A stretch of 64,000 nt of DNA from an uncultured delta proteobacterium (GTDB lineage: Bacteria > Desulfobacterota > Desulfobacteria > Desulfobacterales > UBA2156), in the NCBI GenBank assembly GCA_963736855.1, contig CAVTQK010000006.1, positions 79,328 through 143,327 of the forward strand. The letters run 5' to 3'. The notes under the pieces were generated by a model. That model searched no databases and was not told where the DNA came from. It worked only from the letters and a program-made list of their open reading frames with translations. Position numbers and translations under genes: made by a program. This document shows, one piece after another, positions 2,504-41,662 of this stretch. Position 1 is the stretch's first letter. Every line of letters begins with the position of its first letter.

Positions 2504-3733
2504 ATGCCGGTATTCGAATACAGGGCATTGAATGAAAAAGGAAGGCGTGTGTCCGGCATCGTGGACGCCGAAAGTCCGGTTGCGGCCCGGCAAAAACTGC
2601 GCACCTCCCAGATCTTTCCCATCTCCATTCATGAAATATCAAGGCTATCTAACGTAAAGCATCCCCGATCCGTCTCCTTCATGTTGACCCTTTTCAGACG
2701 GATTAGGATCTCGGAGATCGCCATAACCACCCGGGGAATCGCCACTCTCCTGAGTGCCGGTTTTCCCCTGGTTGCCGCCCTGGAGACTCTCATCTTCCAG
2801 ACCAAAGCGCCTGCACTTCAAAAAGTCTTGGCAAAAGTTAAAGATCTTGTTGTCGAGGGGAACAGCTTCGCTTTTGCGCTGTCCCAATTCCCAGGGGCTT
2901 TTTCGCCCCTTTATATCAACATGGCGCAGGCCGGGGAAGCTTCCGGCACCCTGGAAATCATTCTCGAGCGCTTAGCAGACATGATGGAAAATCAGTTGGA
3001 TTTGAACAACCGCATCCGGAATGCGCTGGCCTATCCCCTATTCATGACCCTTTTGGGAACTGCCGTACTTTTCTTTCTGATGACGGTGATCGTCCCCAAT
3101 ATCGCCGCCGTATTTGCCGAAATGGGACGCGTGCTTCCGGCACCGACGCGTCTGCTCATCGCCGCAAGCGATCTCATTCAATCCTTTTGGTGGCTTATCC
3201 TCATCCTTTGTTTCAGCGGGATCATGGTGTTTTTCAGGGTCAAGAAGTCTCCCCATGGCCGCGATTTTATCGATCGCATGATCCTTCGGACACCGCTTAT
3301 CGGGTTTTTAGTCGTTCGCCTTTCTACTGCGCGGTTCGCCCGGACACTCGGTTCTCTTCTGGAAAACGGGGTTCCCCTGCTCCAGGCCCTCGACATTGTT
3401 CAAAACATTGTGGGATATACCCCCATTTCCAAGGCCATTAAGGCTGCCTCCAGGGAAGTCGAGAAAGGAAGCGGACTGGCAGAGGCCATGGCCTCCAATG
3501 GAGTCTTTCCGAATCTCTTCATGCAGATGTTAAAGGTCGGGGAACAAAGCGGCAAACTGGAGGCCATGCTGAAAAGGACCGCCTCCATCTACGAAAAGGA
3601 GGTAACCGCTCAGGTGACCCGGATGACCTCCCTTTTGGAACCGATCATGATCCTGGTTATGGGAGTTATTGTCGGAGGCATCGTTTTGTCCATTTGTCTG
3701 CCCATCTTCGAAATGAATCAACTGGTCTTTTAA
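2504..3733 (+). CDS. gspF: Type II secretion system inner-membrane platform protein GspF
   Basis: 409 aa. The N-terminus MPVFEYRALNEKGRRVSGIVDAESPVAARQKLR is typical of GspF/PilC, with two repeated cytoplasmic/TM modules. It heads a gsp cluster. Confidence 0.9.
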   Translation: MPVFEYRALNEKGRRVSGIVDAESPVAARQKLRTSQIFPISIHEISRLSNVKHPRSVSFMLTLFRRIRISEIAITTRGIATLLSAGFPLVAALETLIFQTKAPALQKVLAKVKDLVVEGNSFAFALSQFPGAFSPLYINMAQAGEASGTLEIILERLADMMENQLDLNNRIRNALAYPLFMTLLGTAVLFFLMTVIVPNIAAVFAEMGRVLPAPTRLLIAASDLIQSFWWLILILCFSGIMVFFRVKKSPHGRDFIDRMILRTPLIGFLVVRLSTARFARTLGSLLENGVPLLQALDIVQNIVGYTPISKAIKAASREVEKGSGLAEAMASNGVFPNLFMQMLKVGEQSGKLEAMLKRTASIYEKEVTAQVTRMTSLLEPIMILVMGVIVGGIVLSICLPIFEMNQLVF

Positions 3734-4712: not shown

Positions 4713-5094
4713 TTCCAATAAGGCACCCCGGGGGTTCACACTCCTTGAAATCATGGTGGCCGTTTCCATCATCGCCATCGTCTCAACGGCTATCTACCAG
4801 CTGCATTTCTTTTCTCTTTCTGAAAGCCACAGGACTCATCTGGAGGGACAATGTCTCCTGCTAGCCCAGAAAAAACTTTCGGAAATAGATGATTCTAACG
4901 GGGACACCCCAACCAAAGCTTCGGGAGATTTCGGAGAAGATTTCCCGGGCTTTCGATGGGAGATGCAGGTTGACGGGATTCAGTCCGATATTCTTAAGGA
5001 AACCGGGAAAGATTTGAAACAGATTGACCTGAAGGTTTTTTCCGATCGATCATCGGTTCTTTATGCAATCCGTGTTTACCGTTTTTTCCGATAG
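4696..5094 (+). CDS. gspI: Minor pseudopilin (GspI-like)
   Basis: [13 protein letters not shown]|FTLLEIMVAVSIIAIV prepilin N-terminus; the size (132 aa) and position fit GspI. Confidence 0.6.
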   Translation: MPKLNDSNKAPRGFTLLEIMVAVSIIAIVSTAIYQLHFFSLSESHRTHLEGQCLLLAQKKLSEIDDSNGDTPTKASGDFGEDFPGFRWEMQVDGIQSDILKETGKDLKQIDLKVFSDRSSVLYAIRVYRFFR

Positions 5095-19243: not shown

Positions 19244-20897
19244 TAATAAAAGGGAGAATCACCGGACGGCGCTGGATTGCAAAATAGAAGTATTGCCTGA
19301 GCGCCGACTGAATTTTCGTGCGGATCTTTTCGATCCGATTTGGGATTTCAGGGGGAATTTCCTCGACGATTTCTAATATCACACACTTGGCGTCCTCCAG
19401 AAGATAGCCGGATTCGGTTTCAAAAATAAAGCCCCGCGACACCACATCCGGACCATAGGCTATAATACCGGTCTCCTCGTCAAAGGCCATATTCACCACG
19501 ACCAGGCCGTCTTCCGACAAGAGACGCCGCTCCTTGAGAACACTTCTTCCCACATCTCCGATCCCCTTTCCATCCACCAGAACCCGCCCTGTAAAAACCC
19601 GATCACGGATTCTCCCTCCCTTCGAATCGAATTCGATGATTTGACCGTTCTCCGCCAAAAGCACCCGTTCTTTGGGTATGCCGACTTTTTCAGCCAATCG
19701 TGCATGCAGCGCCAAATGACGGTATTCTCCGTGAACCGGAATGAAATATTTCGGCCGGGTCAGGGCGATCATCAATTTCAATTCTTCCCGAAAGGCGTGA
19801 CCGCTGGCATGGATATTGGATATTTTCTCATAAATAACGTCTGCCTCCAGGCGGCAGAGCTTGTTGATGATATTGCCGATGGCTCTTTCATTTCCCGGAA
19901 TAAACTTGGATGAAAGAATAACCATGTCCCCTCTTTTGATAGCAACCCACTTATGGGTCTTGGTGGCCATGCGTGCCAGAGAAGACATGGGTTCCCCCTG
20001 GCTCCCCGTGGTGATCAAAAGGAGCTCTTCATCCGGGAACTCCCCAATCCGACTGATGTCGATCTGCATCTGTTCGGGAATATCGATTAAACCCAGCTCC
20101 TTGGCGATATTGACGGTGGTTTCGATGCTTTTTCCGTCTAGTACCACCTTTCGACCCTGGGCTTTGGCGATCTCCACAATCTTCCCGATACGGGTAATGT
20201 TGGAAGCAAAAAGAGAGATGATCACGCGCCCCTTGTGACTGTGTGTAACCTGTGACAGGGTTTCGGCGATTTCTTCGGCGGATACGGTATGCCCTTCCCT
20301 TTCCACATTGGTGGAATCGGATAGCAGGGCTAAAACCCCTTCATCGCCGCATCGAGCAAAATGATTCACGTCTGTGGTCATTCCCCCCGAAGCCGCATGG
20401 TTGATATTGAAATCCCCGGTATGCACCACCAATCCGTAGGGAGTGTGGATCGCCACGCCGACGCCGCCGACCACACTATGTCCCACCCGGATAAATTCAA
20501 GTTCCAGCTTTCCGATTTTCAGAAGCTCTCCGGGAGAGATATCATGCAGATCACAGGAAGACAGTATTCCGTATTCTTCGAGTTTGCGTCTCACAACCCC
20601 CAAGGTGAAGGGCGTCCCGAAAACCGGAGCATGAATATCTTTGAGCAGGTAGGGGAGTGCGCCGATGTGATCCTCGTGGGCATGGGTCAAGACAATGCCG
20701 GAAAGACGGGGCCCCGCCTTTTTCAGATAGGTCATGTCGGGGATCACTAAATCGACCCCGAGCATATATTCCTCCGGAAACATGAGACCGGCGTCGATGA
20801 CGAAAAGCGTATCTTGATACTGGATCGCCATCATATTCAGGCCTATTTCTCCCAGGCCGCCCAGAGGTATCAGTTTGAGCACCTCACGTCCCTCCAT
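19233..20897 (-). CDS. rnj: Ribonuclease J (metallo-beta-lactamase/beta-CASP)
   Basis: LKLIPLGGLGEIGLNMM, the HAHEDHIGALPYL metal motif, and 554 aa with an RNase J type C-terminal domain. Confidence 0.85.
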   Translation of the reverse strand: MEGREVLKLIPLGGLGEIGLNMMAIQYQDTLFVIDAGLMFPEEYMLGVDLVIPDMTYLKKAGPRLSGIVLTHAHEDHIGALPYLLKDIHAPVFGTPFTLGVVRRKLEEYGILSSCDLHDISPGELLKIGKLELEFIRVGHSVVGGVGVAIHTPYGLVVHTGDFNINHAASGGMTTDVNHFARCGDEGVLALLSDSTNVEREGHTVSAEEIAETLSQVTHSHKGRVIISLFASNITRIGKIVEIAKAQGRKVVLDGKSIETTVNIAKELGLIDIPEQMQIDISRIGEFPDEELLLITTGSQGEPMSSLARMATKTHKWVAIKRGDMVILSSKFIPGNERAIGNIINKLCRLEADVIYEKISNIHASGHAFREELKLMIALTRPKYFIPVHGEYRHLALHARLAEKVGIPKERVLLAENGQIIEFDSKGGRIRDRVFTGRVLVDGKGIGDVGRSVLKERRLLSEDGLVVVNMAFDEETGIIAYGPDVVSRGFIFETESGYLLEDAKCVILEIVEEIPPEIPNRIEKIRTKIQSALRQYFYFAIQRRPVILPFIIEV

Positions 20898-21619
20898 GAG
20901 TCCGACTCAAAGGAATTTTTCATAATGTCCCGTATCTTTTCCAGCAGGGCATCCTTATTTTTCCTGCTGAAATTTCGGGTCTCAACAGGGGACAGCACTT
21001 GAAGAACCACGCTTCCGGGCCGGATCGTCAACCCCTCTTTGGACATAATGGACCAAGTACCGAACAAAATAACAGGAACGATGGGAACTCCGGCTTCCGT
21101 TGCCAGGACGAAGCCGCCCTTCTTGAACGGACTTATTCGGCCGTCACGACTCCTTGTCCCTTCGGGAAATATGAGCACCGACGCACCATCCCGGATGGTT
21201 TGAGCTGCCTGCTTCAGGCTTAAAAAAGCACTCTTACGATCAGATCGATCGATGCTGATGTAACCTGCCTTTCGCATGGCCCGGCCGAAAACAGGGATCT
21301 TGAAAAGCTCGGCCTTTGCCAGCCACCGGAACTGAACCTTGAGATGGGCCAGCAGAACCGGGATGTCGAAATTGCTCTGATGATTGGCCATGAAGATATA
21401 GCTTTTGTTTGGGTCGATATTAGAAAAACCCTCCACCTGAACTCGAATCCGGCTGATGAGAAGGATGCACCTGCCCCAAATTCTGGCGATCTTATGACTG
21501 CTTTTATCCGGACTTCCGAAAAAGGAGACGATCACTGCCATGGTACCAAAAAAAGCGGTCAAGAAGACGACAACCGCTATGATGCAAAATGTCCGAACCA
21601 TATCTGCTGCGCGTTTCAC
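20870..21619 (-). CDS. plsC: 1-acyl-sn-glycerol-3-phosphate acyltransferase
   Basis: NHQSNFDIPV (HX4D-type block) and FPEGTRSRDG motifs, with an N-terminal TM segment. Confidence 0.85.
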   Translation of the reverse strand: MKRAADMVRTFCIIAVVVFLTAFFGTMAVIVSFFGSPDKSSHKIARIWGRCILLISRIRVQVEGFSNIDPNKSYIFMANHQSNFDIPVLLAHLKVQFRWLAKAELFKIPVFGRAMRKAGYISIDRSDRKSAFLSLKQAAQTIRDGASVLIFPEGTRSRDGRISPFKKGGFVLATEAGVPIVPVILFGTWSIMSKEGLTIRPGSVVLQVLSPVETRNFSRKNKDALLEKIRDIMKNSFESDSWRDVRCSN

Positions 21620-21734
21620 GATGCTTTCCCTTTGTGTTGACCCTGCTGTTGCAAAAGCCGAGGATGCCCCGGATCCAAGGCGTCCAAGGGCGAAGCCGTA
21701 GTATTTTACTGGGAGCCCTTGGTAACGAAGGAGA

Positions 21735-21900
21735 CGGGGCGTTCTCGGCTTTCCCTCCGGGTAAAAAACATGACAAATTTTTTATTCGTTTTAGAAGTCA
21801 CTAAAAGTTTATTCGCGAACCATGCCTAAACGTATTCAAATGCCCTGTTATCATTCTTTTTTTCTATTCCTTGTCATGTTTTTATGCAACTGCAGGGTTG
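21735..21900 (-). repeat. Copy 1 of a ~165-bp intergenic repeat (upstream of plsC)
   Basis: About 90 percent identical by eye to 31764-31860 plus 32052-32125 on the opposite strand. It ends with ATGTTTTTTACCC(G/A)GAGGGAAAGCC. Confidence 0.8.
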
Positions 21901-22351: not shown

Positions 22352-22363
22352 AAAAAAAATGAG

Positions 22364-22456
22364 ATCCACCACAGGGGCGGCGAAGCAAGCCTGAGAAGGT
22401 ACCCTTTGAACCTGATCCGGGTAATGCCGGCGTAGGGATGAGATGCGGTGGAGATT
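22364..22456 (+). ncRNA. TPP (THI-box) riboswitch
   Basis: P1 arms tccaccac / gcggtgga enclose GGGGCG...CTGAGAAGGTACCCTTTGAACCTGATCCGGGTAATGCCGGCGTAGGGA, matching the TPP aptamer consensus. It sits directly upstream of thiM-thiE-thiL. Confidence 0.9.
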
Positions 22457-26746: not shown

Positions 26747-29068
26747 TTAAGCAGGGACGTCCCTGATTTCGATTCCCATGGACCGAAGCCGGTCCCGGAT
26801 TCGGTCCGCAGCGTCCCAGTCTCCGGCGTTACGGGCTGCTTCCCTGCTTTTGATGAGGGCAATGATCTCCGGGTTTGGTGTGCTGTCCTGAAACCGGAAA
26901 ATGTTTAAAACCCTGTCGATATCCTGAAATGCGCGGATAATCTTTTCAGCTCCCTTATCATCAATTTTTCTTTGCCGGATGTCGATGTTGATCTTTCTGA
27001 TATTATTAAAAAGCGACGCCAATGCCTCAGGCATATTTAAATCGTCATCCATGGCCGAAAGGAATCCATGCTTGATGTCATAAAGGAGTTGATCCACCTC
27101 GGGGTCCGGGGCTCCCCCTTTGATCTGCCGGAGGGAATGAATACAAGCGTCGATCCGTCTCAAAACACGTCTGGCTTCTTCCAGCCGATCCTGCGAAAAA
27201 GCCAGCGGCTTTCGATAATGATTGGAAAGAAGCCAATATCGAATTTCGCGGCCGGAGAACCCCTTATCAAACAGATCCTTAAGGGTCACTCCGCCTTGCT
27301 TTTTTTCCTTTTCTGCAGCGTTGAACAGGACCCGCTCACAGTGAATCCAGTAATTGGCCATGGGGTGCCCGGTCAAGGCCACGGAAATGGCGATGTGATT
27401 TTCATGGTGGGGAAAAACCAGCTCCCGACCGCTGGTATGAATATCGTACCGATCCCCCATGGACTTCCTGGCTATTGCCGCACACTGAAGGTGCCACGAC
27501 GGACGAACATTCCCCCACTCGGTCTTAACGAAAATCCCGCGTTTGAGTTCGGAAAGTCTCGACCGTTTCATGAGGGTGAAATCCCTGGGATTGTCCTTTT
27601 CGTATTCATCCAGATCCACCGTAGCCCCGAGCTTGATTTTATTGATATCGATTCCGGACAGTTTTCCGTAATCCGGGATCCGGGAAATATTAAAATAAAG
27701 GGATCTCAGCTTTTCATAGGCAAACCCGCTCTTCTTGAGGTCACGGGCCATCTGAACCATATCTTGGAGATTTCCGCTTGTCCGGGGATAGCTGTCCGCC
27801 GGCCGGACGCCCAGGGATTCAAGGTCCTTTTGAAACCATTGAATGTGCTCATCCGTAAACTCGGGAAGGGAGATATTGGCCGATTCCGATCCTGCCAGGG
27901 TTTTGTCGTCGAAGTCGGTGATGTTTACGATATGACGCACCGCATACCCCCGGTATCCGAGGTACCGGCAAAGCAGATCGGAAAATACGAATCGGCGGCA
28001 TTCTTCGATTTGCATTCGGGCATGTGCGGTGGGACCGCAGGTATAGAGCGAGGCCTTACCGGGAATCAGGGGCTTAAAGATCTCCTCTTTCCGGCTCATT
28101 GTGTTAAAGAGCCTCAAGTCCACCTTTTCTTTTATTGCAAAGAGAGTCGTGCTGAGATACCTTTCCCCGCCGTCCGGAAGGATTACCACCATGACACCCT
28201 TTTCCATGAGAGCGGCTTCCCTGCAAGCAATTGCCATGGCCGCGCCGCTGCTCATCCCTGCAAAAATCCCCTCTTCTTTGGCCAGCCGTCGGGTCATCTC
28301 GAAAGCTTCTTCATCCTCGACGTTGATCTTTTTATCCAGGCGATTCTTATCGAAGATTTCAGGCTGGTAAGCCTCTTTCATGTTCTTAAGCCCCTGGATT
28401 TTATGACCCAGGTAAGGCTCCACACCGATAATCTGGACGGCCGGATTGTATTCCTTCAGCCGCCTCGAGATCCCCATAAGGGTGCCTGATGTCCCCAGGG
28501 TCGCCACCACAGCGGTAACCGCTCCATGGGTCTGGCGCCAGATCTCTTCGGCAGTTCCATGGTAATGGGCTTGCCAGTTGGCATCGTTGTTATACTGATC
28601 CGGCATGAAATAAAAATTCGGATTCTCCCGGGACATCCGATAAACTTCCTCGATGGCGCCGTCGGTTCCTAAGTGTCCCGGGGTCAGAAGGATCTCCGCC
28701 CCCCGAGCCTTAAGGATTTTTCTTCGCTCTTCACTCACCGCTTCCGACATGGCCAAGAGGAGGTGGTATCCCTTCACTGTACATACCAATGCCAGGCCGA
28801 TTCCCGTGTTACCGCTGGTGGCTTCGATGACCGTTTTGTCGGGCTTCAAAAGGCCGCAATGTTCCCCGGCTTCAATCATGGAAAGCGCAGGGCGATCTTT
28901 CACCGATCCGCCCGGATTAAACGATTCCAGTTTCGCCAATAGCCTCACCCTCGGGTTGGGGTTTAACCGCCGAATCTCCACTATAGGGGTGTTGCCGATG
29001 GCATCAAGGATGGACTGGTTCATTCGTGCTGGATCCTCAAATTCGGCCAGAGCCTGCACGCATGCCAT
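26747..29068 (-). CDS. Fusion protein: PLP-dependent cysteine synthase (CysK/CysM-like) N-domain plus cysteinyl-tRNA-synthetase-like C-domain with degenerate class-I motifs
   Basis: Residues 1-310 carry NTPIVE, GGSVKDRPA (PLP Lys), TSGNTGIGLA and ILPDGGERYLST. From about residue 318, LRLFNTMSRKEEIFKP...LYTCGP...NITDFDDK...WHLQCAAIA...FPHHENHIA aligns to CysRS. However, HIGH is replaced by MQIE and KMSKS by KEKKQ. Confidence 0.8.
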   Translation of the reverse strand: MACVQALAEFEDPARMNQSILDAIGNTPIVEIRRLNPNPRVRLLAKLESFNPGGSVKDRPALSMIEAGEHCGLLKPDKTVIEATSGNTGIGLALVCTVKGYHLLLAMSEAVSEERRKILKARGAEILLTPGHLGTDGAIEEVYRMSRENPNFYFMPDQYNNDANWQAHYHGTAEEIWRQTHGAVTAVVATLGTSGTLMGISRRLKEYNPAVQIIGVEPYLGHKIQGLKNMKEAYQPEIFDKNRLDKKINVEDEEAFEMTRRLAKEEGIFAGMSSGAAMAIACREAALMEKGVMVVILPDGGERYLSTTLFAIKEKVDLRLFNTMSRKEEIFKPLIPGKASLYTCGPTAHARMQIEECRRFVFSDLLCRYLGYRGYAVRHIVNITDFDDKTLAGSESANISLPEFTDEHIQWFQKDLESLGVRPADSYPRTSGNLQDMVQMARDLKKSGFAYEKLRSLYFNISRIPDYGKLSGIDINKIKLGATVDLDEYEKDNPRDFTLMKRSRLSELKRGIFVKTEWGNVRPSWHLQCAAIARKSMGDRYDIHTSGRELVFPHHENHIAISVALTGHPMANYWIHCERVLFNAAEKEKKQGGVTLKDLFDKGFSGREIRYWLLSNHYRKPLAFSQDRLEEARRVLRRIDACIHSLRQIKGGAPDPEVDQLLYDIKHGFLSAMDDDLNMPEALASLFNNIRKINIDIRQRKIDDKGAEKIIRAFQDIDRVLNIFRFQDSTPNPEIIALIKSREAARNAGDWDAADRIRDRLRSMGIEIRDVPA

Positions 29069-29832: not shown

Positions 29833-30798
29833 TCAACCCTTTTTCCGATAGAACTGCCGCTCCAACACCCTGTGATAGGATGTCCACTGATCGCCCGGGG
29901 AATCGGATTCAATGAACTCCCGTATCCCATTGATCTTGGAATCGATTTCGTCGATGTAATGGAGTAAGACCGCTTCGACGGTCTTGGGAACTTCGGGAGA
30001 TCCGTATTCCCGGCTGCCATGATGGCTGAGAACCAAGTGTTTCAGGAGCATGGCTTTTTCATCAGGGAAATCCCTTATCTCCTTTAATTTTTCCTCTAGC
30101 ATGTGTACACCTATGACGATATGTCCCAAAAGCCGACCCCCATCCGAATAGTCGATCACATGATCATAAATAAATTCTTTGGTTTTACCGATATCATGTA
30201 AAACAGCACCTGCCAAGAGGAGGTCGCGGTCGATGCCTCGGTAGTGACCGGCAATGGCGTCGCTGAGACAGACCATGGACAGGGTATGCTCCAACAGTCC
30301 CCCGACATAAGCATGATGCATCATTTTCGCCGCAGGTGCCTTCTTGAATTGGGCTATCAGCTCCGAATCATCAAAAAACGCCTTCAGAAGTTTTTTCAGG
30401 TGCGCGTCCTTAATGGATTGGGATATGCGATCCAGTTTATCAAACATATCTTCGATATCTCGTCGGGTTTTCGGGAGAAACGCCTCCGGATCAATGTCCG
30501 TCTCCTGAAAAGGGAAGATCTCTTTCACCACTACCTGGAGCTGCCCATGGTATTCCGAAACGAATCCTTTAACCTGGACAAGCTTCCCTTTCCGGATATT
30601 GGCGGCGGCCAGGTCCGCATTTTCCCACATGACGGCCCGGATGCCTCCGGATCGATCGCTAAGGGTCATGGTAAGATAGCTGTTTCCATCTCTCTTTTTC
30701 CCTAATACTTTCTCTGAGAGAGCAAAGATTTCGTCTATGGGTTCCCCCGGCTTCAGATCCGCTGCAAAACGACCTTTGATCGGTTTACTCCCCATCAA
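29833..30798 (-). CDS. OB-fold plus HD-domain 3'-5' exoribonuclease (YhaM/Cbf1-like)
   Basis: N-terminal OB fold (YLTMTLSDRSGGIRAVMWE...KGKLVQVKGFVSEYHGQLQ), and an HD domain (HHAYVGGLLEHTL, LHDIGK). Confidence 0.7.
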   Translation of the reverse strand: MMGSKPIKGRFAADLKPGEPIDEIFALSEKVLGKKRDGNSYLTMTLSDRSGGIRAVMWENADLAAANIRKGKLVQVKGFVSEYHGQLQVVVKEIFPFQETDIDPEAFLPKTRRDIEDMFDKLDRISQSIKDAHLKKLLKAFFDDSELIAQFKKAPAAKMMHHAYVGGLLEHTLSMVCLSDAIAGHYRGIDRDLLLAGAVLHDIGKTKEFIYDHVIDYSDGGRLLGHIVIGVHMLEEKLKEIRDFPDEKAMLLKHLVLSHHGSREYGSPEVPKTVEAVLLHYIDEIDSKINGIREFIESDSPGDQWTSYHRVLERQFYRKKG

Positions 30799-31558
30799 AT
30801 TTGTGAGGCTCCAATTGCCATCCTTTCAATTTTTCAAGGATGTCATGATCGGTGATGTCACACCGGATAGGCGTCAGGGTGATATAGTTTCGACTCAAGG
30901 CCGCCCCGTCCGTATCCGGCCCGCTGAAGGCCCTTTGCTGTTCGCAACCTTGCCAATAATAGGCTCGATTCCTTGGATCCGTCCGCCTTTCAAAGTGTTC
31001 TTCAACGGGGAACATTTCGAGCCGGGTGATCCGAACTCCGGCGGTTTGATCCATAGGAATATCGGGGATGTTGATATTCAAGACAGTTCCGTGATAAATT
31101 GGATGTTCCAACACTCTTTGGGCCACTTGTTCCACGAATGCCGCCGCGTTATCGATATACCGGCCCTCTCCCGGCATAGACACAGCAATGGCCGGAATGC
31201 CGTAAAAACCGGCTTCCCGGGCCGCGCAGACCGTTCCGGAATAATTCACGTTGAAGCCGATATTTGCCCCAGGATTGATTCCGGACAGAACCAAATCGGG
31301 CTTGATGTCCATCAGTTCCAGGATCGCGAGCTTGATGCAATCTGCCGGAGTCCCATTCACTGCATACCCAAAAACATTTCCCTCCAAGTGAATCCGTTCA
31401 CATCGGATCGGTTTGTGCAACGTGATGGAATGCCCAACCGCGCTGCGTTGCCGGTCCGGTGCGACAATGAAAACTTCATGTTTCATTGAAAAACGACGGT
31501 AAAGAGCAAAAAGGCCTCTGGCATGAATCCCGTCGTCATTGGTCAACAAGATACGCAT
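30785..31558 (-). CDS. surE: 5'/3'-nucleotidase SurE
   Basis: MRILLTNDDGIHARGL start at ATG 31558, with GINPGANIG and YSGTV motifs. Confidence 0.85.
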   Translation of the reverse strand: MRILLTNDDGIHARGLFALYRRFSMKHEVFIVAPDRQRSAVGHSITLHKPIRCERIHLEGNVFGYAVNGTPADCIKLAILELMDIKPDLVLSGINPGANIGFNVNYSGTVCAAREAGFYGIPAIAVSMPGEGRYIDNAAAFVEQVAQRVLEHPIYHGTVLNINIPDIPMDQTAGVRITRLEMFPVEEHFERRTDPRNRAYYWQGCEQQRAFSGPDTDGAALSRNYITLTPIRCDITDHDILEKLKGWQLEPHKFDGE

Positions 31559-31763
31559 CTGCTTATCCCTGAAACGCATCTCAACCGGAAATGTCGCTTG
31601 CAAACAGCGGCACCAAACTTTATAAAATCCGAAAGGCGAGCGTAAAACCCCGGTCTATAAAAAGGCCATTCAACTTCATATTGACTTTTAACATCGATTC
31701 GGATCTATACATAAAACTTCATTCGCGTTCAAGAAAGTTATCCATAACAGGCCGAAGCCCTCT

Positions 31764-31860
31764 AAACCCTGAAGTTGCATAAAAAACATGACGGGGAATA
31801 GAAAAAAAGAATGATAACAGAGCATTTGAATACGTTTAGGTATGGTTCTCGAATAAACTT
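31764..31860 (+). repeat. Copy 2 (left part) of the ~165-bp intergenic repeat, split by a MITE
   Basis: Matches the reverse complement of 21805-21900 at about 90 percent by eye. Confidence 0.8.
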
Positions 31861-32051
31861 GGATGGCTTCGTAAAAAGGTTTTATGAGCGCCATCCAAGT
31901 CTTTTCGGAAAAAGAGAGGCAAAGGGTTGAGCGTTAAAAATCTCAAGCTGTTTGAGGCACTTGTGCCGAGTTCTTGAGATTTAGCGAAACCCTTTGGATC
32001 TTCCGAAAAGAATTGCGGCGCGAGAAAAATCGGCCTTTTTACGATTTCATC
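31861..32051. mobile_element. 191-bp MITE-like insertion with imperfect terminal inverted repeats and a 5-bp AACTT target duplication
   Basis: The left end GGATGGCTTCGTAAAAAGG pairs with the reverse complement of the right end, GATGAAATCGTAAAAAGGCC. AACTT occurs at 31856-31860 and 32052-32056. The uninterrupted paralog at 21795-21815 reads ...AATAAACTTTTAGTGAC... and acts as an empty site. The interior folds into a long hairpin (31898-32013). Confidence 0.75.
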
Positions 32052-32125
32052 AACTTTTGGTGACTTCTAAAACAAATAAAAAATTTGTCATGTTTTTTAC
32101 CCAGAGGGAAAGCCAAGGATGCCAT
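32052..32125 (+). repeat. Copy 2 (right part) of the ~165-bp intergenic repeat, includes the lptD start codon
   Basis: Matches the reverse complement of 21735-21809. It contains ATGTTTTTTACCCAGAGGGAAAGCC. Confidence 0.75.
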
Positions 32126-34429
32126 GTCGATCCTCTCTGGCGAGGGAAATTGGCTCTCTTTCTCTCCCTTTTTGTTGTCCTTTTAGGGATGGCGCTTTCC
32201 GGAATGTCCCATGCCGCATCTCGGTCCGAGAATGTCTTTGGATCCACTACCGCCGATGCAAGCTCGCCCTGGCAGGTCACGGCCGATTCCCTGTTTTATG
32301 ACCAAGAAGCCGACCATTACGTCGCCAAGGGACATGTCGTCGTCGTCAAAAAGAGGATGCGCCTCAGCGGCGACTTCGTTCAGCTGAATCACAAAACGGG
32401 CCAGGCTCTTGCCATCGGAAACGCCGTCTTGTCCGATGGAGAGGACATCCTCACCGGGGAGCGCATCCGCTTCGACCTGAAAAATGAAACCGGAAGCGCC
32501 TATCACGGCACCGTCTTTTTAAAACAAAACCATTTTTATATCCAGGGGGATAAGATACAAAAGACCGGCGAAAAGACTTATAGTGCCCAATCGGCAAGCA
32601 TTTCCACCTGTGACGGTGAGAACCCGGCCTGGAGGGTCACGGCCCGAAATGTCTCTGTGGCGCTGGAAGGATACGGCTCCGCCACACACAGTACTCTGTG
32701 GCTAAAAAAGGTGCCGGTGCTTTATACTCCATACTTTGTCTTCCCCGCCAAAACCAAACGCCAGTCCGGATTTCTTCCCCCTCGCCTGGGGGTCTCCGAC
32801 CGGAAGGGAACCGAATATGAACAGCCCTATTTCTGGGCCATCAATGATAATTCGGATGCCACACTCTACTTAGACCATATGGATCGACGGGGAGAAAAAG
32901 TCGGGCTTGAATACCGCTACGTCCTGAGTCGCCTTTCCAAAGGTGCCCTCATGGGAGATTTCCTCAATGATCGTCAGTTGGACGACGGAACCGGCGATTC
33001 AAGCGATCGCTGGGGTTACGAGGACGACAAGTACTTAAGACCCAACCACGACCGTTATTGGTTCAGGATGAAACACGACCAGGTCCTTCCGTGGGACTTT
33101 TTCGCCAAACTCGATCTCGACATTGTCTCGGACCAGGATTATTTGGTGGAATTCAAAAGCGGCTACAATGGCTTCGATGAAACCAATCAGTATTTTGAAA
33201 CCGTCTTCGGCAGGGGCGTGGACGATTATACGGACACCACCCGATTGAACCGCCTGAACCTGAATCGGGCTTGGAACCGAAGCAGCCTCAACATCGAAGG
33301 CCGATGGTATGACAATGTTCTTTTCCGCAGGCACAGCGATCCGGACGACTTAGATAAGACCCTTCAGCGCCTCCCGTTCGTCGAATACGACATTTCCAAA
33401 GGGCGGTTACTAGATACCCCATTTTATTACGATATGTCCTCAGATTATGTCCGTTACTACCGTAAAGACGGGCTGCGGGGGCACCGTGTGGATGTTTATC
33501 CGAAGGCGTATCTACCCGTAAAACTAAACAATTATCTGTCCCTGGAACCTTTTATGGGGCTTCGGGAAACATTCTGGCATATCGACCAGTACGAAACCGA
33601 TAAGGAAGATCAGGACCGCACCCAGCTCAGAGACCTCTATGACGCAGGCGTCAATCTCAGCACGGAATTGTATCGGATTTACAACACCGGAGGGAAAACC
33701 CTCGATAAGATCCGCCACAGCATCCTCCCAAAGATCACCTATCGCTATCTACCGGAAAAAGAACAGGATCAATACCCCAAATTCGACGACGTCGACCGGA
33801 TCGGAAGAGTCAACCAGGTCGGCTACTCGCTGACGAACACGTTCACCTCAAGGTCCCTCAAGAAAAAACCGGACACGGAAAATCCTCAATATATATACCG
33901 GGAATTCGCAAGACTCGGCGTCAGTCAGAGCTACAATATCTATGAAGCCACAGACGAGGACATTGAAGAGAAAGAACCGTTTTCCAACATTAATGGTCGG
34001 CTGGAACTCAGACCCATGGATCATATATCCGTTGACGCCGATGCCCAGTGGTCCGTTTACGAACATGACTGGATGTCTTATAATGCTCAGTGTAAGGCCT
34101 CGGATTATCGAGGGGACAGCTTCCATGTCGAATATCGTTACCGGCGGGATTCAGCCGAAGGTAAATCGAACGGGAAGGAGTCCATTTATACCCGGCTTTA
34201 TGCCAACCTTTTTGGGGGTTTCTCCGCTTTTTGGGAATATGAACGCAACCTGTACGACAAAGAGGATATCAAAACCGGAATCGGGGTGATCTATAAAGCC
34301 CAATGCTGGTCCATCGATTTTCGATATACTGACGAATTCGAAGACCGGGCCTACTCCGTAATGATTAACCTTTACGGCCTCGGCGGCTTCGGAAGCAGCA
34401 TTGGAACCGAAAAACAAGAAACCGAATGA
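32090..34429 (+). CDS. lptD: LPS-assembly outer-membrane protein LptD (OstA family)
   Basis: Signal peptide RGKLALFLSLFVVLLGMALSGMSHA. An OstA N-domain (ADSLFYDQEADHYVAKGHVVV) and a large beta-barrel. ORF-track start 31994 lies inside the MITE, so ATG 32090 is preferred. Confidence 0.8.
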   Translation: MFFTQRESQGCHVDPLWRGKLALFLSLFVVLLGMALSGMSHAASRSENVFGSTTADASSPWQVTADSLFYDQEADHYVAKGHVVVVKKRMRLSGDFVQLNHKTGQALAIGNAVLSDGEDILTGERIRFDLKNETGSAYHGTVFLKQNHFYIQGDKIQKTGEKTYSAQSASISTCDGENPAWRVTARNVSVALEGYGSATHSTLWLKKVPVLYTPYFVFPAKTKRQSGFLPPRLGVSDRKGTEYEQPYFWAINDNSDATLYLDHMDRRGEKVGLEYRYVLSRLSKGALMGDFLNDRQLDDGTGDSSDRWGYEDDKYLRPNHDRYWFRMKHDQVLPWDFFAKLDLDIVSDQDYLVEFKSGYNGFDETNQYFETVFGRGVDDYTDTTRLNRLNLNRAWNRSSLNIEGRWYDNVLFRRHSDPDDLDKTLQRLPFVEYDISKGRLLDTPFYYDMSSDYVRYYRKDGLRGHRVDVYPKAYLPVKLNNYLSLEPFMGLRETFWHIDQYETDKEDQDRTQLRDLYDAGVNLSTELYRIYNTGGKTLDKIRHSILPKITYRYLPEKEQDQYPKFDDVDRIGRVNQVGYSLTNTFTSRSLKKKPDTENPQYIYREFARLGVSQSYNIYEATDEDIEEKEPFSNINGRLELRPMDHISVDADAQWSVYEHDWMSYNAQCKASDYRGDSFHVEYRYRRDSAEGKSNGKESIYTRLYANLFGGFSAFWEYERNLYDKEDIKTGIGVIYKAQCWSIDFRYTDEFEDRAYSVMINLYGLGGFGSSIGTEKQETE

Positions 34430-38951: not shown

Positions 38952-39747
38952 GCCGACCGGGAAGGTCTATCATTTTGATTGCGGAGCCTTCGTGCTACAT
39001 GAAAAGGACTCGGTGATCGTCGAAACCGAACAGGGTCTCGAACTGGGCACTGTGGTGGTCGCTCCCTTTACTCGCGATGAAGACTTTTCGGGCAAACCTT
39101 TGAAAAAGGTGTATCGACTGGCCGTGGAGAACGATTTCAAGCAACTGGAACAAAACCGGGAAACAGAAAGGCGCGCCCTTGCCTTTTGTTTGAACAGCAT
39201 CCTAAACTTGGGGCTTTCCATGCATCTATTTTCAGTGGAAAGTAATTTCGACGGCAACAAGCTGACCTTCTTCTTCACCGCGGAAGGGCGTATCGATTTC
39301 CGCCAGCTTGTGAAAATGTTGGTAAAAGAACTCGGTACCAGGGTGGAAATGCGTCAGGTCGGAATTCGGAATCAGGCTAAGATGTGCGGCGGGATCGGGC
39401 GCTGTGGAAGGATGTTCTGCTGCTCGAATTTTATCGAGAAGTTCGAGCCGATTTCCATACGTATGGCCAAAGAGCAGGGGCTGTCCCTCAACCCAACCAA
39501 GATTTCCGGGCAGTGTGGCAGATTGATGTGCTGTTTAACCTTCGAAAACGAAACCTATTTGGAATTGAAAAAAGAACTCCCGCCCATCGGCCATACGGTG
39601 AAGACCGCTCGAGGAGAAGGAAAAGTGGTCCGCCACAACATCATTTGTGGCCGCATGGTCATTCAAATAGCCGACGGCCAGGAAATCGAAATTCATCGAG
39701 ACGAAATCCAAGAAACAGAAAAGAGGTACAACAAAATTGACATCTGA
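38923..39747 (+). CDS. ricT: PSP1-domain protein (RicT/YaaT family)
   Basis: MNKIVGIRFKPTGKVYHFD start and a PSP1 C-domain with CGGIGRCGRMFCCSNF...CGRLMCCL. It follows holB, as in many bacteria. Confidence 0.75.
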   Translation: MNKIVGIRFKPTGKVYHFDCGAFVLHEKDSVIVETEQGLELGTVVVAPFTRDEDFSGKPLKKVYRLAVENDFKQLEQNRETERRALAFCLNSILNLGLSMHLFSVESNFDGNKLTFFFTAEGRIDFRQLVKMLVKELGTRVEMRQVGIRNQAKMCGGIGRCGRMFCCSNFIEKFEPISIRMAKEQGLSLNPTKISGQCGRLMCCLTFENETYLELKKELPPIGHTVKTARGEGKVVRHNIICGRMVIQIADGQEIEIHRDEIQETEKRYNKIDI

Positions 39748-41662
39748 ACCTTTTTACGTCACCACCCCTATTTATTATGTCAATGCCCGGCCACACTTGG
39801 GACACGCCTATACGACTCTTGTTGCGGATGTCCTGTGCCGGTACCAACAAATGAAGCAAAAGGAGACATTCCTTCTGACCGGCACGGATGAACACGGCGA
39901 CAAAGTGGTCCAAGCCGCAAAGGCGGAAAACGAAAGCCCCAAGGATTATGTGGATAAAATCAGCGGCCTTTTCCGTGACCTATGGCCGAAGCTGAACGTA
40001 CGGCACCACGACTTCATCAGAACCACGGAGCCCCGGCACATTGCGGTGGTGGAACGTGTGCTTCAAAAGATCTACGACGCCGGCGATATCTACTTCAGCG
40101 AATACGAAGGCCTCTATTGTTTTGGGTGCGAACGTTTTTATACCGAACATGAACTTAAAGACGGCAAATGCCCGGATCATGAAACGGAGCCCGAACGAAT
40201 TAGAGAGCATAATTATTTCTTCAAGATGAGCCGGTATCAGGGATGGCTCATCGATCACATTCAGTCCCATCCCGATTTCATCCGTCCGCAGCGGTACCGA
40301 AACGAGGTCCTGTCATTTCTGAAAGAACCCTTAGAGGACCTGTGTATCTCCCGCCCCAAGACCCGCCTGCAATGGGGCATTACGCTGCCGTTCGACAATA
40401 ATTACGTCACCTATGTCTGGTTCGACGCTCTCTTGAACTATGTGTCCGCACTGGGATACCCCGACGGTGAGCGTTTCTTGAAACTCTGGCCCCATGCCCA
40501 ACACATCGTTGCCAAAGACATCTTAAAGCCCCACGGCATATACTGGCCTACTATGCTCAAGGCCGCCGGAATCCCGGTCTACCAGCACCTCAACGTGCAT
40601 GGATATTGGAACGTGGACCAAAGCAAAATGTCCAAAAGCCTCAAAAACGTCATTGACCCCCTTGCCTTGATTCAAAGCTATGGACTGGATGCTTTTCGAT
40701 TCTTCCTCATGCGAGAGATGGTCTTCGGGTTGGATGCCGGCTTTTCCGAGGCGGCTCTGGTCGCCCGCATCAACTCCGATTTGGCCAACGACTTGGGTAA
40801 TCTGTTTTCAAGAACGTTGGCCATGGCCCACAAATACTTCAAAGGACGCGTTCCGGAAGTCTCACTCGAAGCCCGGCATGAAATAGGATTCAGCATTGAA
40901 AAAAAAGCAGGGGATACCGTTTCGGAATTTGAAGCGGCCATGGAATCCTTTGCCTTCCATAAAGCCCTCATGGCGGTCTGGGAATTTATCAACCAGTTGA
41001 ACAAATACATCGACGTCACGGCTCCCTGGATACTGGCTAAGGACCCTTCCCAACACGACCTTCTTGCCGCAGTCATCTCTAACCTGTTGGAAGGACTGTA
41101 TGTCATATCGGGCCTGATCTATCCGGTCATGCCGAAAACAGCTCAAACCATGCAAAAACATTTAGGGCTGGAGCCCGATGCCCGGTTTTTCGACCTTGAT
41201 CGGATAGGCCCGTTTAACCGGATACGCTCCGGAACTCATCTTCCTAAAGCGACTGCCCTTTTTCCGAGGATCGACACGGAGAAAAGAAAAAACCAAGGAT
41301 CCGACGAGACCCATCCGGTCGTAGCGTTGCAAGCCGTCAAACCTGAGATTGACATAGAAACCTTCCGTAAGCTTGACCTTCGGGTAGTCACCGTCTTGAA
41401 GGCCGAATCGATCCCTAAGGCCAAGAAACTTTTAGCGCTGGAAGTCGATATGGGAGAAATACGGACCGTAGTATCGGGCATCGCCCAAAGCTACAAGCCG
41501 GAAGACCTCATCGGCAAACAGATCGTTATGGCAGCCAACTTAAAGCCGGCTAAAATCATGGGAGTGCTTTCCAAAGGGATGATGCTGGCCGTCGCAGACG
41601 GAGATCATGCCGTCGCCCTGACCGTGGATAAACCGGTCAAGGCGGGGACTCCCGTCACTTGA
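39737..41662 (+). CDS. metG: Methionyl-tRNA synthetase with C-terminal tRNA-binding (EMAPII-like) domain
   Basis: HIGH as PHLGHAYT, KMSKS intact, a zinc knuckle CFGCERF...CPDH, and a C-terminal LDLRVVTVLKAESIPKAKKLL domain. Confidence 0.9.
   Translation: MTSEPFYVTTPIYYVNARPHLGHAYTTLVADVLCRYQQMKQKETFLLTGTDEHGDKVVQAAKAENESPKDYVDKISGLFRDLWPKLNVRHHDFIRTTEPRHIAVVERVLQKIYDAGDIYFSEYEGLYCFGCERFYTEHELKDGKCPDHETEPERIREHNYFFKMSRYQGWLIDHIQSHPDFIRPQRYRNEVLSFLKEPLEDLCISRPKTRLQWGITLPFDNNYVTYVWFDALLNYVSALGYPDGERFLKLWPHAQHIVAKDILKPHGIYWPTMLKAAGIPVYQHLNVHGYWNVDQSKMSKSLKNVIDPLALIQSYGLDAFRFFLMREMVFGLDAGFSEAALVARINSDLANDLGNLFSRTLAMAHKYFKGRVPEVSLEARHEIGFSIEKKAGDTVSEFEAAMESFAFHKALMAVWEFINQLNKYIDVTAPWILAKDPSQHDLLAAVISNLLEGLYVISGLIYPVMPKTAQTMQKHLGLEPDARFFDLDRIGPFNRIRSGTHLPKATALFPRIDTEKRKNQGSDETHPVVALQAVKPEIDIETFRKLDLRVVTVLKAESIPKAKKLLALEVDMGEIRTVVSGIAQSYKPEDLIGKQIVMAANLKPAKIMGVLSKGMMLAVADGDHAVALTVDKPVKAGTPVT

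Follow-up and report, generated by a model that had tools for sequence, protein, structure and literature searches.

A probable miniature inverted-repeat transposable element in the lptD leader region of a Desulfobacterota bacterium and its candidate IS1182-like partner

How does an intergenic repeat come to be split by extra DNA in front of one gene and left whole in front of another? The question is raised by a 64,000-nt stretch of contig CAVTQK010000006.1 from an uncultured delta proteobacterium of the Desulfobacterales; this whole stretch is called the window, and positions given without a locus name are in its numbering. At 31861-32052 the window holds a 192-bp insertion inside a ~174-bp intergenic repeat, in the leader region of lptD. 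An earlier inspection of the letters alone (the sequence-only reading) had taken the insert for a miniature inverted-repeat transposable element (MITE), that is, a non-autonomous DNA transposon. Our analysis supports that view, having found other copies of the element, empty sites, no encoded transposase and a candidate parental insertion sequence (IS). We conclude that the window element is very probably a MITE of a large family found mainly in Desulfobacterota.

Occupied and empty sites, copies and ends

Across the insert the window reads ...TCGAATAAACTT, then the element from GGATGGCTTCGTAAAAAGG to CCTTTTTACGATTTCATCA, then ACTTTTGGTGAC... A continuous copy of the repeat had been reported upstream of plsC, and this proved correct: the uninterrupted paralogue, GAATAAACTTTTAGTGACTTC, occurs once in the window, at 21794-21814 on the minus strand, within a repeat similar to the sequence on either side of the insert. 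The flanks fall into two inverted repeat pairs, 21805-21883 with 31782-31860 (79 nt, 94%) and 21733-21812 with 32049-32128 (80 nt, 89%), indicating that the halves of the host repeat around the insert are contiguous in the second copy. When the insert is removed, a gapped local alignment extends the host repeat to ~174 bp, with 31765-31860 plus 32057-32134 set against ~21729-21900(-).

The orthologous site upstream of lptD was found empty on a contig (L031) of a closely related strain, whose LptD (P0001) is 91% identical to that of the window. This contig starts 40 nt left of the insertion site and reads catttgaatacgtttaggcatggttcgcgaataaACTTttggtgacttctaaaac..., with ...GAATAAACTTTTGGTGACTTC... 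at the element-free site (within its positions 1-60), and runs on into lptD. To the right of the site L031 has the lptD-type TTGG, whereas the plsC paralogue has TTAG; to the left it has two bases in common with the plsC copy (GGCATGG, TTCGCG), which we read as the ancestral state of the repeat, changed in the lptD copy of the window. A chimeric join of the two paralogues in L031 appears improbable, since the ~6 nt of shared sequence would be too short for an assembler to bridge. Two more distant orthologous loci, L032 and L033 (LptD 74% identical, same surE-lptD synteny), have surE-lptD spacers of 263 and 201 bp, respectively, with neither host repeat nor MITE inside. Since these two loci have neither and the L031 site is empty, the host repeat came first and the MITE followed in the window lineage only. 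Comparison of the loci shows that the MITE inserted at an ACTT of the ~174-bp repeat, which was by then in place in the lptD leader, and that a close relative keeps the site empty.

The expectation that copies would exist elsewhere was borne out. Scanning one genome per species for TCGTAAAAAGG-N(140-170)-CCTTTTTACGA returned 29 loci, with ~2 expected by chance by our own arithmetic, and nearly all of them lie in Desulfobacterota: nine in the metagenome-assembled genome (MAG) Meg22_1012_Bin_147, eleven in a Desulfocapsa MAG, two in Desulfobacterales CG23_52_9, and single ones in Desulfosarcina widdelii PP31, a Syntrophaceae MAG and others. Eleven of these loci belong to the subfamily of the window element, at 85-97% identity (the best, L027, at 97.4%), and metagenome contigs add two subfamily copies (L191, L103) and a partial one. 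Together this gives 14 further copies, spread over unrelated loci of at least five Desulfobacterota MAGs and of two contigs from sediment metagenomes. The window element and the eleven genome-scan copies align over their full length with a mean column identity of 89%. A metagenome scan for TGAYNNNNTCGTAAAAAGGY gave at least 120 loci; among the matches listed, 46 have an inverted partner end, and most of these paired-end elements measure 47-293 bp and fall into many subfamilies. A blastn search of a plasmid collection gave no match to the element, and 58 matches in viral contigs were all solitary, about the number expected by chance, and were rejected as real elements.

Over all subfamilies the termini read 5'-TGAYnnnnTCGTAAAAAGG...CCTTTTTACGAnnnnRTCA-3'. 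The outermost T and A are conserved amid unrelated flanks and thus belong to the element, which moves its right boundary. The sequence-only reading had described a 191-bp insert with a 5-bp AACTT duplication, and AACTT indeed stands at both 31856-31860 and 32052-32056, enclosing 191 bp (31861-32051). However, the family comparison shows the fifth A of that repeat to be the final, conserved base of the element itself, so that the element comprises 192 bp, within the ~500 bp usual for bacterial MITEs, and the duplication is the 4-bp ACTT. The window copy ends in ...CATCA and starts with G in place of the consensus T. Its terminal inverted repeats (TIRs) are as first described, GATGGCTTCGTAAAAAGG matching GATGAAATCGTAAAAAGG at 15 of 18 positions.

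Perfect 4-bp duplications flank 9 of the 12 subfamily copies (ACTT, ACAT, AAGT, CTTT, AATA, ACTT, TCTT, AAAT and AATT). Across the family they flank 31 of 76 short elements, as opposed to 1 of 76 in a control on the adjoining four bases further out; A/T makes up 77% of the duplicated positions. A duplication of 5 or 6 bp was rejected: L027 (ACAT/ACAT) fits 4 bp only, and the adjoining T and A are conserved across subfamilies with unrelated flanks. The family is thus made up of elements with 19-bp common termini, a 4-bp A/T-rich duplication and palindromic interiors that differ wholly between subfamilies. Only two open reading frames (ORFs) cross the window element, a read-through extension of lptD and a 68-aa ORF on the minus strand; these ORFs, and a tblastn search of the window with the transposase described below, agree with the earlier statement that it encodes no transposase.

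A candidate mobilising element and the choice of target

The suggestion that a parental IS might be recognised by its ends led to a candidate with the same termini and the same duplication length. At L193 522-2419 (1898 bp) such an end pair encloses a single 575-aa ORF, and L212 1368-3260 is a 1893-bp element of the same type. The IS elements measure 1893-1898 bp, have inverted repeats (IRs) of ~22 bp and carry a single ORF of 575-579 aa, whose Pfam domains DUF772, DDE_Tnp_1 and DDE_Tnp_1_6 all score above their cut-offs. The L193 transposase has more than 4,100 relatives at E < 1e-20, most of them on contigs of ~2 kb, in keeping with a multicopy IS. We examined the IS ends in 14 loci, namely L193 and 13 contigs for three relatives (L212-L224). 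Every end lying within a contig reads TGATGGTCTCGTAAAAAGT... on the left and ...ACTTTTTACGAGTTCATCA on the right, or a close variant (the left end of L221 falls outside the sequence). Perfect 4-bp duplications were found at three independent IS sites (AAAA, AAAT, AGGT), and an alignment of 15 MITE and IS ends has G2, A3 and T9-G18 invariant.

We consider it likely, on these sequence grounds, that a ~1.9-kb IS1182-like element is the mobilising partner of the MITE. The DDE transposase of such insertion sequences would mobilise the MITE in trans, with the invariant TCGTAAAAAG box (positions 9-18) as its putative binding site and the TGA/TCA tips as putative cleavage sites.

Several observations weigh against reading the element as a MITE with this partner. 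The 64-kb window holds a single copy of the element; partial matches at 39747-39776 and ~10203, both in coding sequence, were set aside as chance. The best NCBIfam model for the transposase is IS1182 (NF033551), which gives 148.9 bits for L193 and 167-181 bits for its relatives at a cut-off of 270; the match has E = 2e-43 to 4e-53 and covers ~445-457 of the 488 profile positions (29-485 to 42-485) at a sub-cut-off score, and the family assignment is approximate. On several short IS-bearing contigs the two flanks do not match, and the same flanks reappear in other pairings, which we assume to reflect chimeric assembly of a multicopy element. A tblastn search with the partner transposase found none in the window or in the MITE-bearing loci, save a degenerate fragment in L185. 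Lastly, MITE and IS are alike over the first ~19 nt only, so that the two are linked by their ends and duplication length and not by descent of the interior.

The alternative that survives best is mobilisation by a transposase of another family, such as IS3, the likeness to IS1182-like ends being convergent. IS3-family elements end in TG...CA and make duplications of 3-5 bp. Three features of the present family resemble IS3 behaviour, namely the TGA...TCA tips, the duplications of 4 bp and the head-to-tail junctions of 4 bp described below, and in the loci examined no IS1182-like IS was seen alongside the MITE, apart from the L185 fragment. Yet the 18-nt terminal motif, with its 12 invariant positions, is common to the MITEs and to every IS1182-like end examined, and no other IS with these ends was found in ~1 Mb of MITE-bearing loci. 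IS3 parentage, which predicts an orfA/orfB frameshift and an rve domain, was rejected, since the one IS recovered with such ends carries a single IS1182-like ORF. We therefore regard a parent outside the IS1182-like group as improbable.

Other pairs of ends were tried as autonomous elements and discarded. In L006 and L022 (Desulfocapsa) TIR pairs lie 2-3 kb apart and enclose ordinary genes (DAHP synthase, aminotransferase, DNA polymerase beta clamp), and are thus separate elements in neighbouring spacers; the TIR pairs of L161 and L162 are likewise separate elements. As an observation in its own right, IS1182-like copies in L193 440-521, L214 850-3387 and L217 197-2599 lie in or beside small helix-turn-helix (HTH)/XRE and HigB-like toxin-antitoxin genes. 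The left IS flank in L193 resembles a truncated XRE-type gene and has no matching duplication.

The spacing of neighbouring elements bears on target choice. In 12 of ~170 cases a right end is followed by a left end after exactly 4 nt; of the other spacings up to 60 nt, 3 nt occurs once and 5 nt twice, and all the rest together account for only three cases. Such head-to-tail arrays, with one and the same 4-mer on every side, occur at L024 2351-2680, L097 12931-13214, L144 7335-7659, L016 2581-2796 and L033 8378-8700. Where both neighbours are complete, all three 4-mers are identical (AAGT three times in L024, CTCT three times in L097). The neighbours belong to different subfamilies, indicating second insertions into the duplication of a resident element and not dimers.

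Insertion guided by the end of the resident or by its palindrome would be the likeliest cause of the 4-bp adjacency. A bolder and doubtful extension is that an IS1182-like transposase reads DNA structure as well as sequence, that its MITEs have to be palindromes from end to end, and that it integrates preferentially at the outer border of a resident element while re-using the 4-bp duplication there. A requirement for palindromy would explain both the palindromic nature of unrelated interiors and the compensatory restoration of pairs, and integration at the border would make arrays grow head-to-tail. If this were true, the present family would be a tractable model of how structure and ends guide target choice among IS1182 elements, a poorly characterised group. 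More generally, it constitutes a very abundant MITE/IS system of Desulfobacterota and other sediment anaerobes whose ends and duplication length are defined and for which a candidate transposase is available. The record is unusually complete, as it holds an occupied site, paralogous and orthologous empty sites, a family consensus and that candidate.

The palindrome and what else it could be

The element is predicted to fold with -77.9 kcal/mol, whereas shuffled sequences reach -50.1 +/- 4.3 (z = -6.5; none of 200 shuffles as good). A rod-like hairpin of ~115 nt had been proposed before; its named arms and its GGCA-CUUG-UGCC tip are present in the predicted fold, but the pairing is not confined to 115 nt and takes in the whole element end to end. 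Among the 12 aligned copies 98.3% of cells are paired, a value that no shuffle reaches and that drops to 34-54% when partners are slid by 1-3 columns. Four pairs are changed on both sides (17 of 500 shuffles reach this), one of them twice independently, from G-C once to A-U and once to U-A. The evidence for maintained pairing is moderate, since the copies are close relatives and it is from these copies that the structure was derived.

Two features of other copies touch on the palindrome. One subfamily copy (L009, ~3297-3312) has ~11 extra bases at the hairpin tip, which form a G+C-rich mini-hairpin, CCCGCCGAAGGCGGGA. At nine contig ends of Desulfocapsa TAG_MAG_00006 (L006, L008, L011, L012, L014, L018, L022, L023 and L025) the left flank of the element is the reverse complement of the right one; these ends look like fold-back assembly artefacts of near-perfect palindromic elements and are unsuitable for calls of duplication or synteny. 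Relatives of the element disrupt metagenome assembly and give rise to contigs that end in fold-backs.

A structured regulatory RNA or a small-RNA gene of the lptD leader, with a functional hairpin and no mobility, would also account for the very stable fold, the four pairs kept by compensatory changes and a location probably within the lptD 5' leader. It is very unlikely on several counts. Rfam gave no match at E <= 1 in 31560-32200, and its sole match above the gathering threshold in the window is a thiamine pyrophosphate (TPP) riboswitch. Single-side changes to G.U and to A.C are about equal in number of events by our own count, so that neither strand is favoured as RNA. Moreover, copies lie beside unrelated genes in both orientations with target duplications, and the element is absent from the related strain and from the more distant orthologues.

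Slightly less probable still is a palindrome of the repetitive extragenic palindromic (REP) or REPIN type, spread by a single-copy Y1 (RAYT/IS200-type) transposase through single-stranded hairpin intermediates. Such a history fits an element that is a hairpin over its whole length, a family very abundant in intergenic regions (with elements flanking ordinary genes in the Desulfocapsa MAG) and the presence of compensatory changes; it does not fit the regular 4-bp duplications, which are the signature of staggered cuts by DDE transposases and are not made by REPINs, the existence of a DDE IS with the same ends, or the lack of a GTAG-type REP head.

That the plsC-upstream copy instead lost 196 bp by deletion between AACTT repeats, leaving the lptD copy ancestral and free of any insertion, can be dismissed: the window alone cannot polarise the two states and short direct repeats can mediate deletion, but the same 192-bp unit with the same ends turns up in other genomes at 14 unrelated loci, where each copy has a 4-bp duplication of its own, and the orthologous lptD site of L031 is uninterrupted.

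The lptD leader, neighbouring features and known relatives

The MITE sits between surE and lptD, its right end 38 nt from the ATG at 32090 (Table 1). Upstream of it, a block TTGAC(T/A)-N19-TATACATAAAACTT...GCGTTCAAGAA.GTTATCC is common to three genomes (the window, L032 ~4850-4930 and L033 ~4840-4925), whose spacers are otherwise unalignable. In L032 and L033 the block lies ~60 nt upstream of the lptD start codons; in the window the host repeat and the MITE lie between the two. Its conservation suggests that the block is the lptD promoter. A scan for consensus promoters and terminators found none in or near the element and did not call the block at 31671-31745, so that the assignment is tentative. 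If the block is the promoter, host repeat and MITE both lie in the transcribed leader, which would have grown from ~100 nt to ~360 nt, and lptD transcripts probably carry a hairpin of -78 kcal/mol in their 5' leader. The leader region of an essential envelope gene has taken in two elements one after the other, the host repeat and later the MITE, and the window and L031 form a natural allele pair for the effect of a 190-nt 5'-leader hairpin on expression.

Table 1. Positions of the element, its host repeat and nearby genes in the window.
Feature	Position	Strand	Basis or remark
PlsC-type acyltransferase	20870..21619	-	Pfam Acyltransferase
Paralogous unbroken host repeat upstream of PlsC-type acyltransferase	21729..21900	-	empty ACTT target at 21805-21808
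surE, divergent left neighbour of lptD	30785..31558	-	Pfam SurE, 3.2e-62; synteny kept in L032 and L033
Promoter-like block TTGACT-N19-TATACATAAAAC...GCGTTCAAGAAAGTTATCC	31671..31745	+	conserved upstream of lptD in L032 and L033
Host intergenic repeat, left part split off by the MITE	31765..31860	+	gapped alignment to 21729-21900(-)
Left 4-bp target-site duplication ACTT	31857..31860		family: 31/76 perfect vs 1/76 control
MITE (very probable)	31861..32052	+	non-coding; 192 bp; imperfect palindrome over full length; absent from paralogous copy and L031 site
Left TIR GGATGGCTTCGTAAAAAGG	31861..31879	+	TGA-type tip; TCGTAAAAAG box at positions 9-18
65-pair rod hairpin (predicted)	31869..32044	+	spans TIR boxes through GGCA-CUUG-UGCC tip at ~31956-31967; RNAalifold, 12 aligned copies
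Right TIR, reverse complement TGATGAAATCGTAAAAAGG	32034..32052	-	17/19 match to IS right end TGATGAACTCGTAAAAAGT
Right 4-bp target-site duplication ACTT	32053..32056		family: 31/76 perfect vs 1/76 control
Host intergenic repeat, right part, reaching into lptD start region	32057..32134	+	contiguous with left part in L031
lptD	32090..34429	+	Pfam LptD, LptD_2, LptD_N; orthologues

The insertion also bears on where lptD begins. The open frame of lptD runs back through the MITE to 31994, where a spurious in-frame ATG had been noted; an upstream start in frame is indeed there, but the codon is TTG. The L031 sequence differs from the window by an indel between ~32103 and ~32108 whose length is not divisible by three and which puts the ATG at 32090 out of frame there, so the stretch from the MITE site to ~32108 is probably not coding. 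The first conserved in-frame start (window 32090-32150 compared with L031 42-130) is a TTG at 32149, preceded by GAGGG, and this may be the true lptD start in place of ATG 32090. The extension of the frame to TTG 31994 would then be a by-product, and the sole coding effect, of the insertion. For annotation, the element accounts both for the spurious N-terminal extension of the lptD product and for the inflated spacer between surE and lptD.

The host repeat may be a second mobile or duplicated regulatory module. Its copies upstream of lptD and of plsC are ~92-93% identical and A/T-rich (35% GC as compared with 50.5% for the window), and the repeat has a 12-bp inverted repeat of its own, AAAAAACATGAC...GTCATGTTTTTT. 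The whole region upstream of plsC, 21620-21900(-), is a set of nested palindromes with a predicted fold of -93.6 kcal/mol (z = -6.0). A motif AAAGCCGAG(G/A)A(T/C)GCC is present in two inverted copies at 21654-21668 and 21738-21752 and in a third just before lptD, at 32109-32123, where L031 carries the variant ACCCTGCTGTTGCAAAAGCCGAGGATGCC. Further from the element, the TPP riboswitch lies at 22363-22456(+) (RF00059, 61.6 bits), upstream of ORFs that we take to be thiM/thiE/thiL. A 773-aa ORF at 26747-29068(-) is an apparent fusion of a PALP (cysteine synthase-like) domain to cysteinyl-tRNA synthetase; its orthologues in L032 and L033 have PF00291, PF01406, DALR_2 and CysS_C.

How does the family compare with known systems? 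The enterobacterial ERIC/IRU and neisserial Correia elements are likewise intergenic, 100-200 bp long and imperfectly palindromic from end to end. Where they are transcribed together with a neighbouring gene, the resulting long RNA hairpins can affect how stable its mRNA is or how it is processed. Correia elements duplicate TA, and to our knowledge no transposase that mobilises ERIC or Correia elements has been identified. The present family differs in having a candidate transposase, and it is not known to share sequence similarity with either group.

IS1182-family elements are ~1.3-1.95 kb long and bounded by IRs. The family is heterogeneous, with repeats of 2-60 bp and some members that target palindromes (PMC7335449, PMC5678879). 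Within it ISPse1 has 1653 bp, an IR of 16/16 and a direct repeat (DR) of 4 (PMC3281130), and IS1272 has 1934 bp, makes no duplication and replaces palindromes (PMC5678879). Like the members of this family, the partner IS has a single DDE ORF with DUF772, DDE_Tnp_1 and DDE_Tnp_1_6 domains, a length of ~1.9 kb, IRs and 4-bp duplications. It departs from the family in scoring below the NCBIfam cut-off (149-181 as against 270 bits), and one relative is named only "transposase" by NCBI; it departs from IS1272 in its regular 4-bp duplications, in contrast to the palindrome replacement without duplication of that element.

A full-text literature search on MITEs in sulfate reducers and Desulfobacter found nothing relevant. 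The MITE family is apparently undescribed, and it belongs to a well-known class, that of MITEs with an IS1182-like partner. In this class the ISMac2 MITEs of Methanosarcina acetivorans measure 160 and 169 bp, with IRs of 25-26 and, in the 160-bp element, a DR of 4 (PMC3852290). Compared by description, the ISMac2 MITEs and the present family are both small, multicopy and non-coding, with TIRs in common with an IS1182-type IS and a 4-bp repeat (in the 160-bp element). They differ in their hosts, which are archaeal for ISMac2 and bacterial (Desulfobacterota) here. Unlike the ISMac2 MITEs, the present family combines a fixed TGAYnnnnTCGTAAAAAG terminus with many subfamilies of unrelated palindromic interiors.

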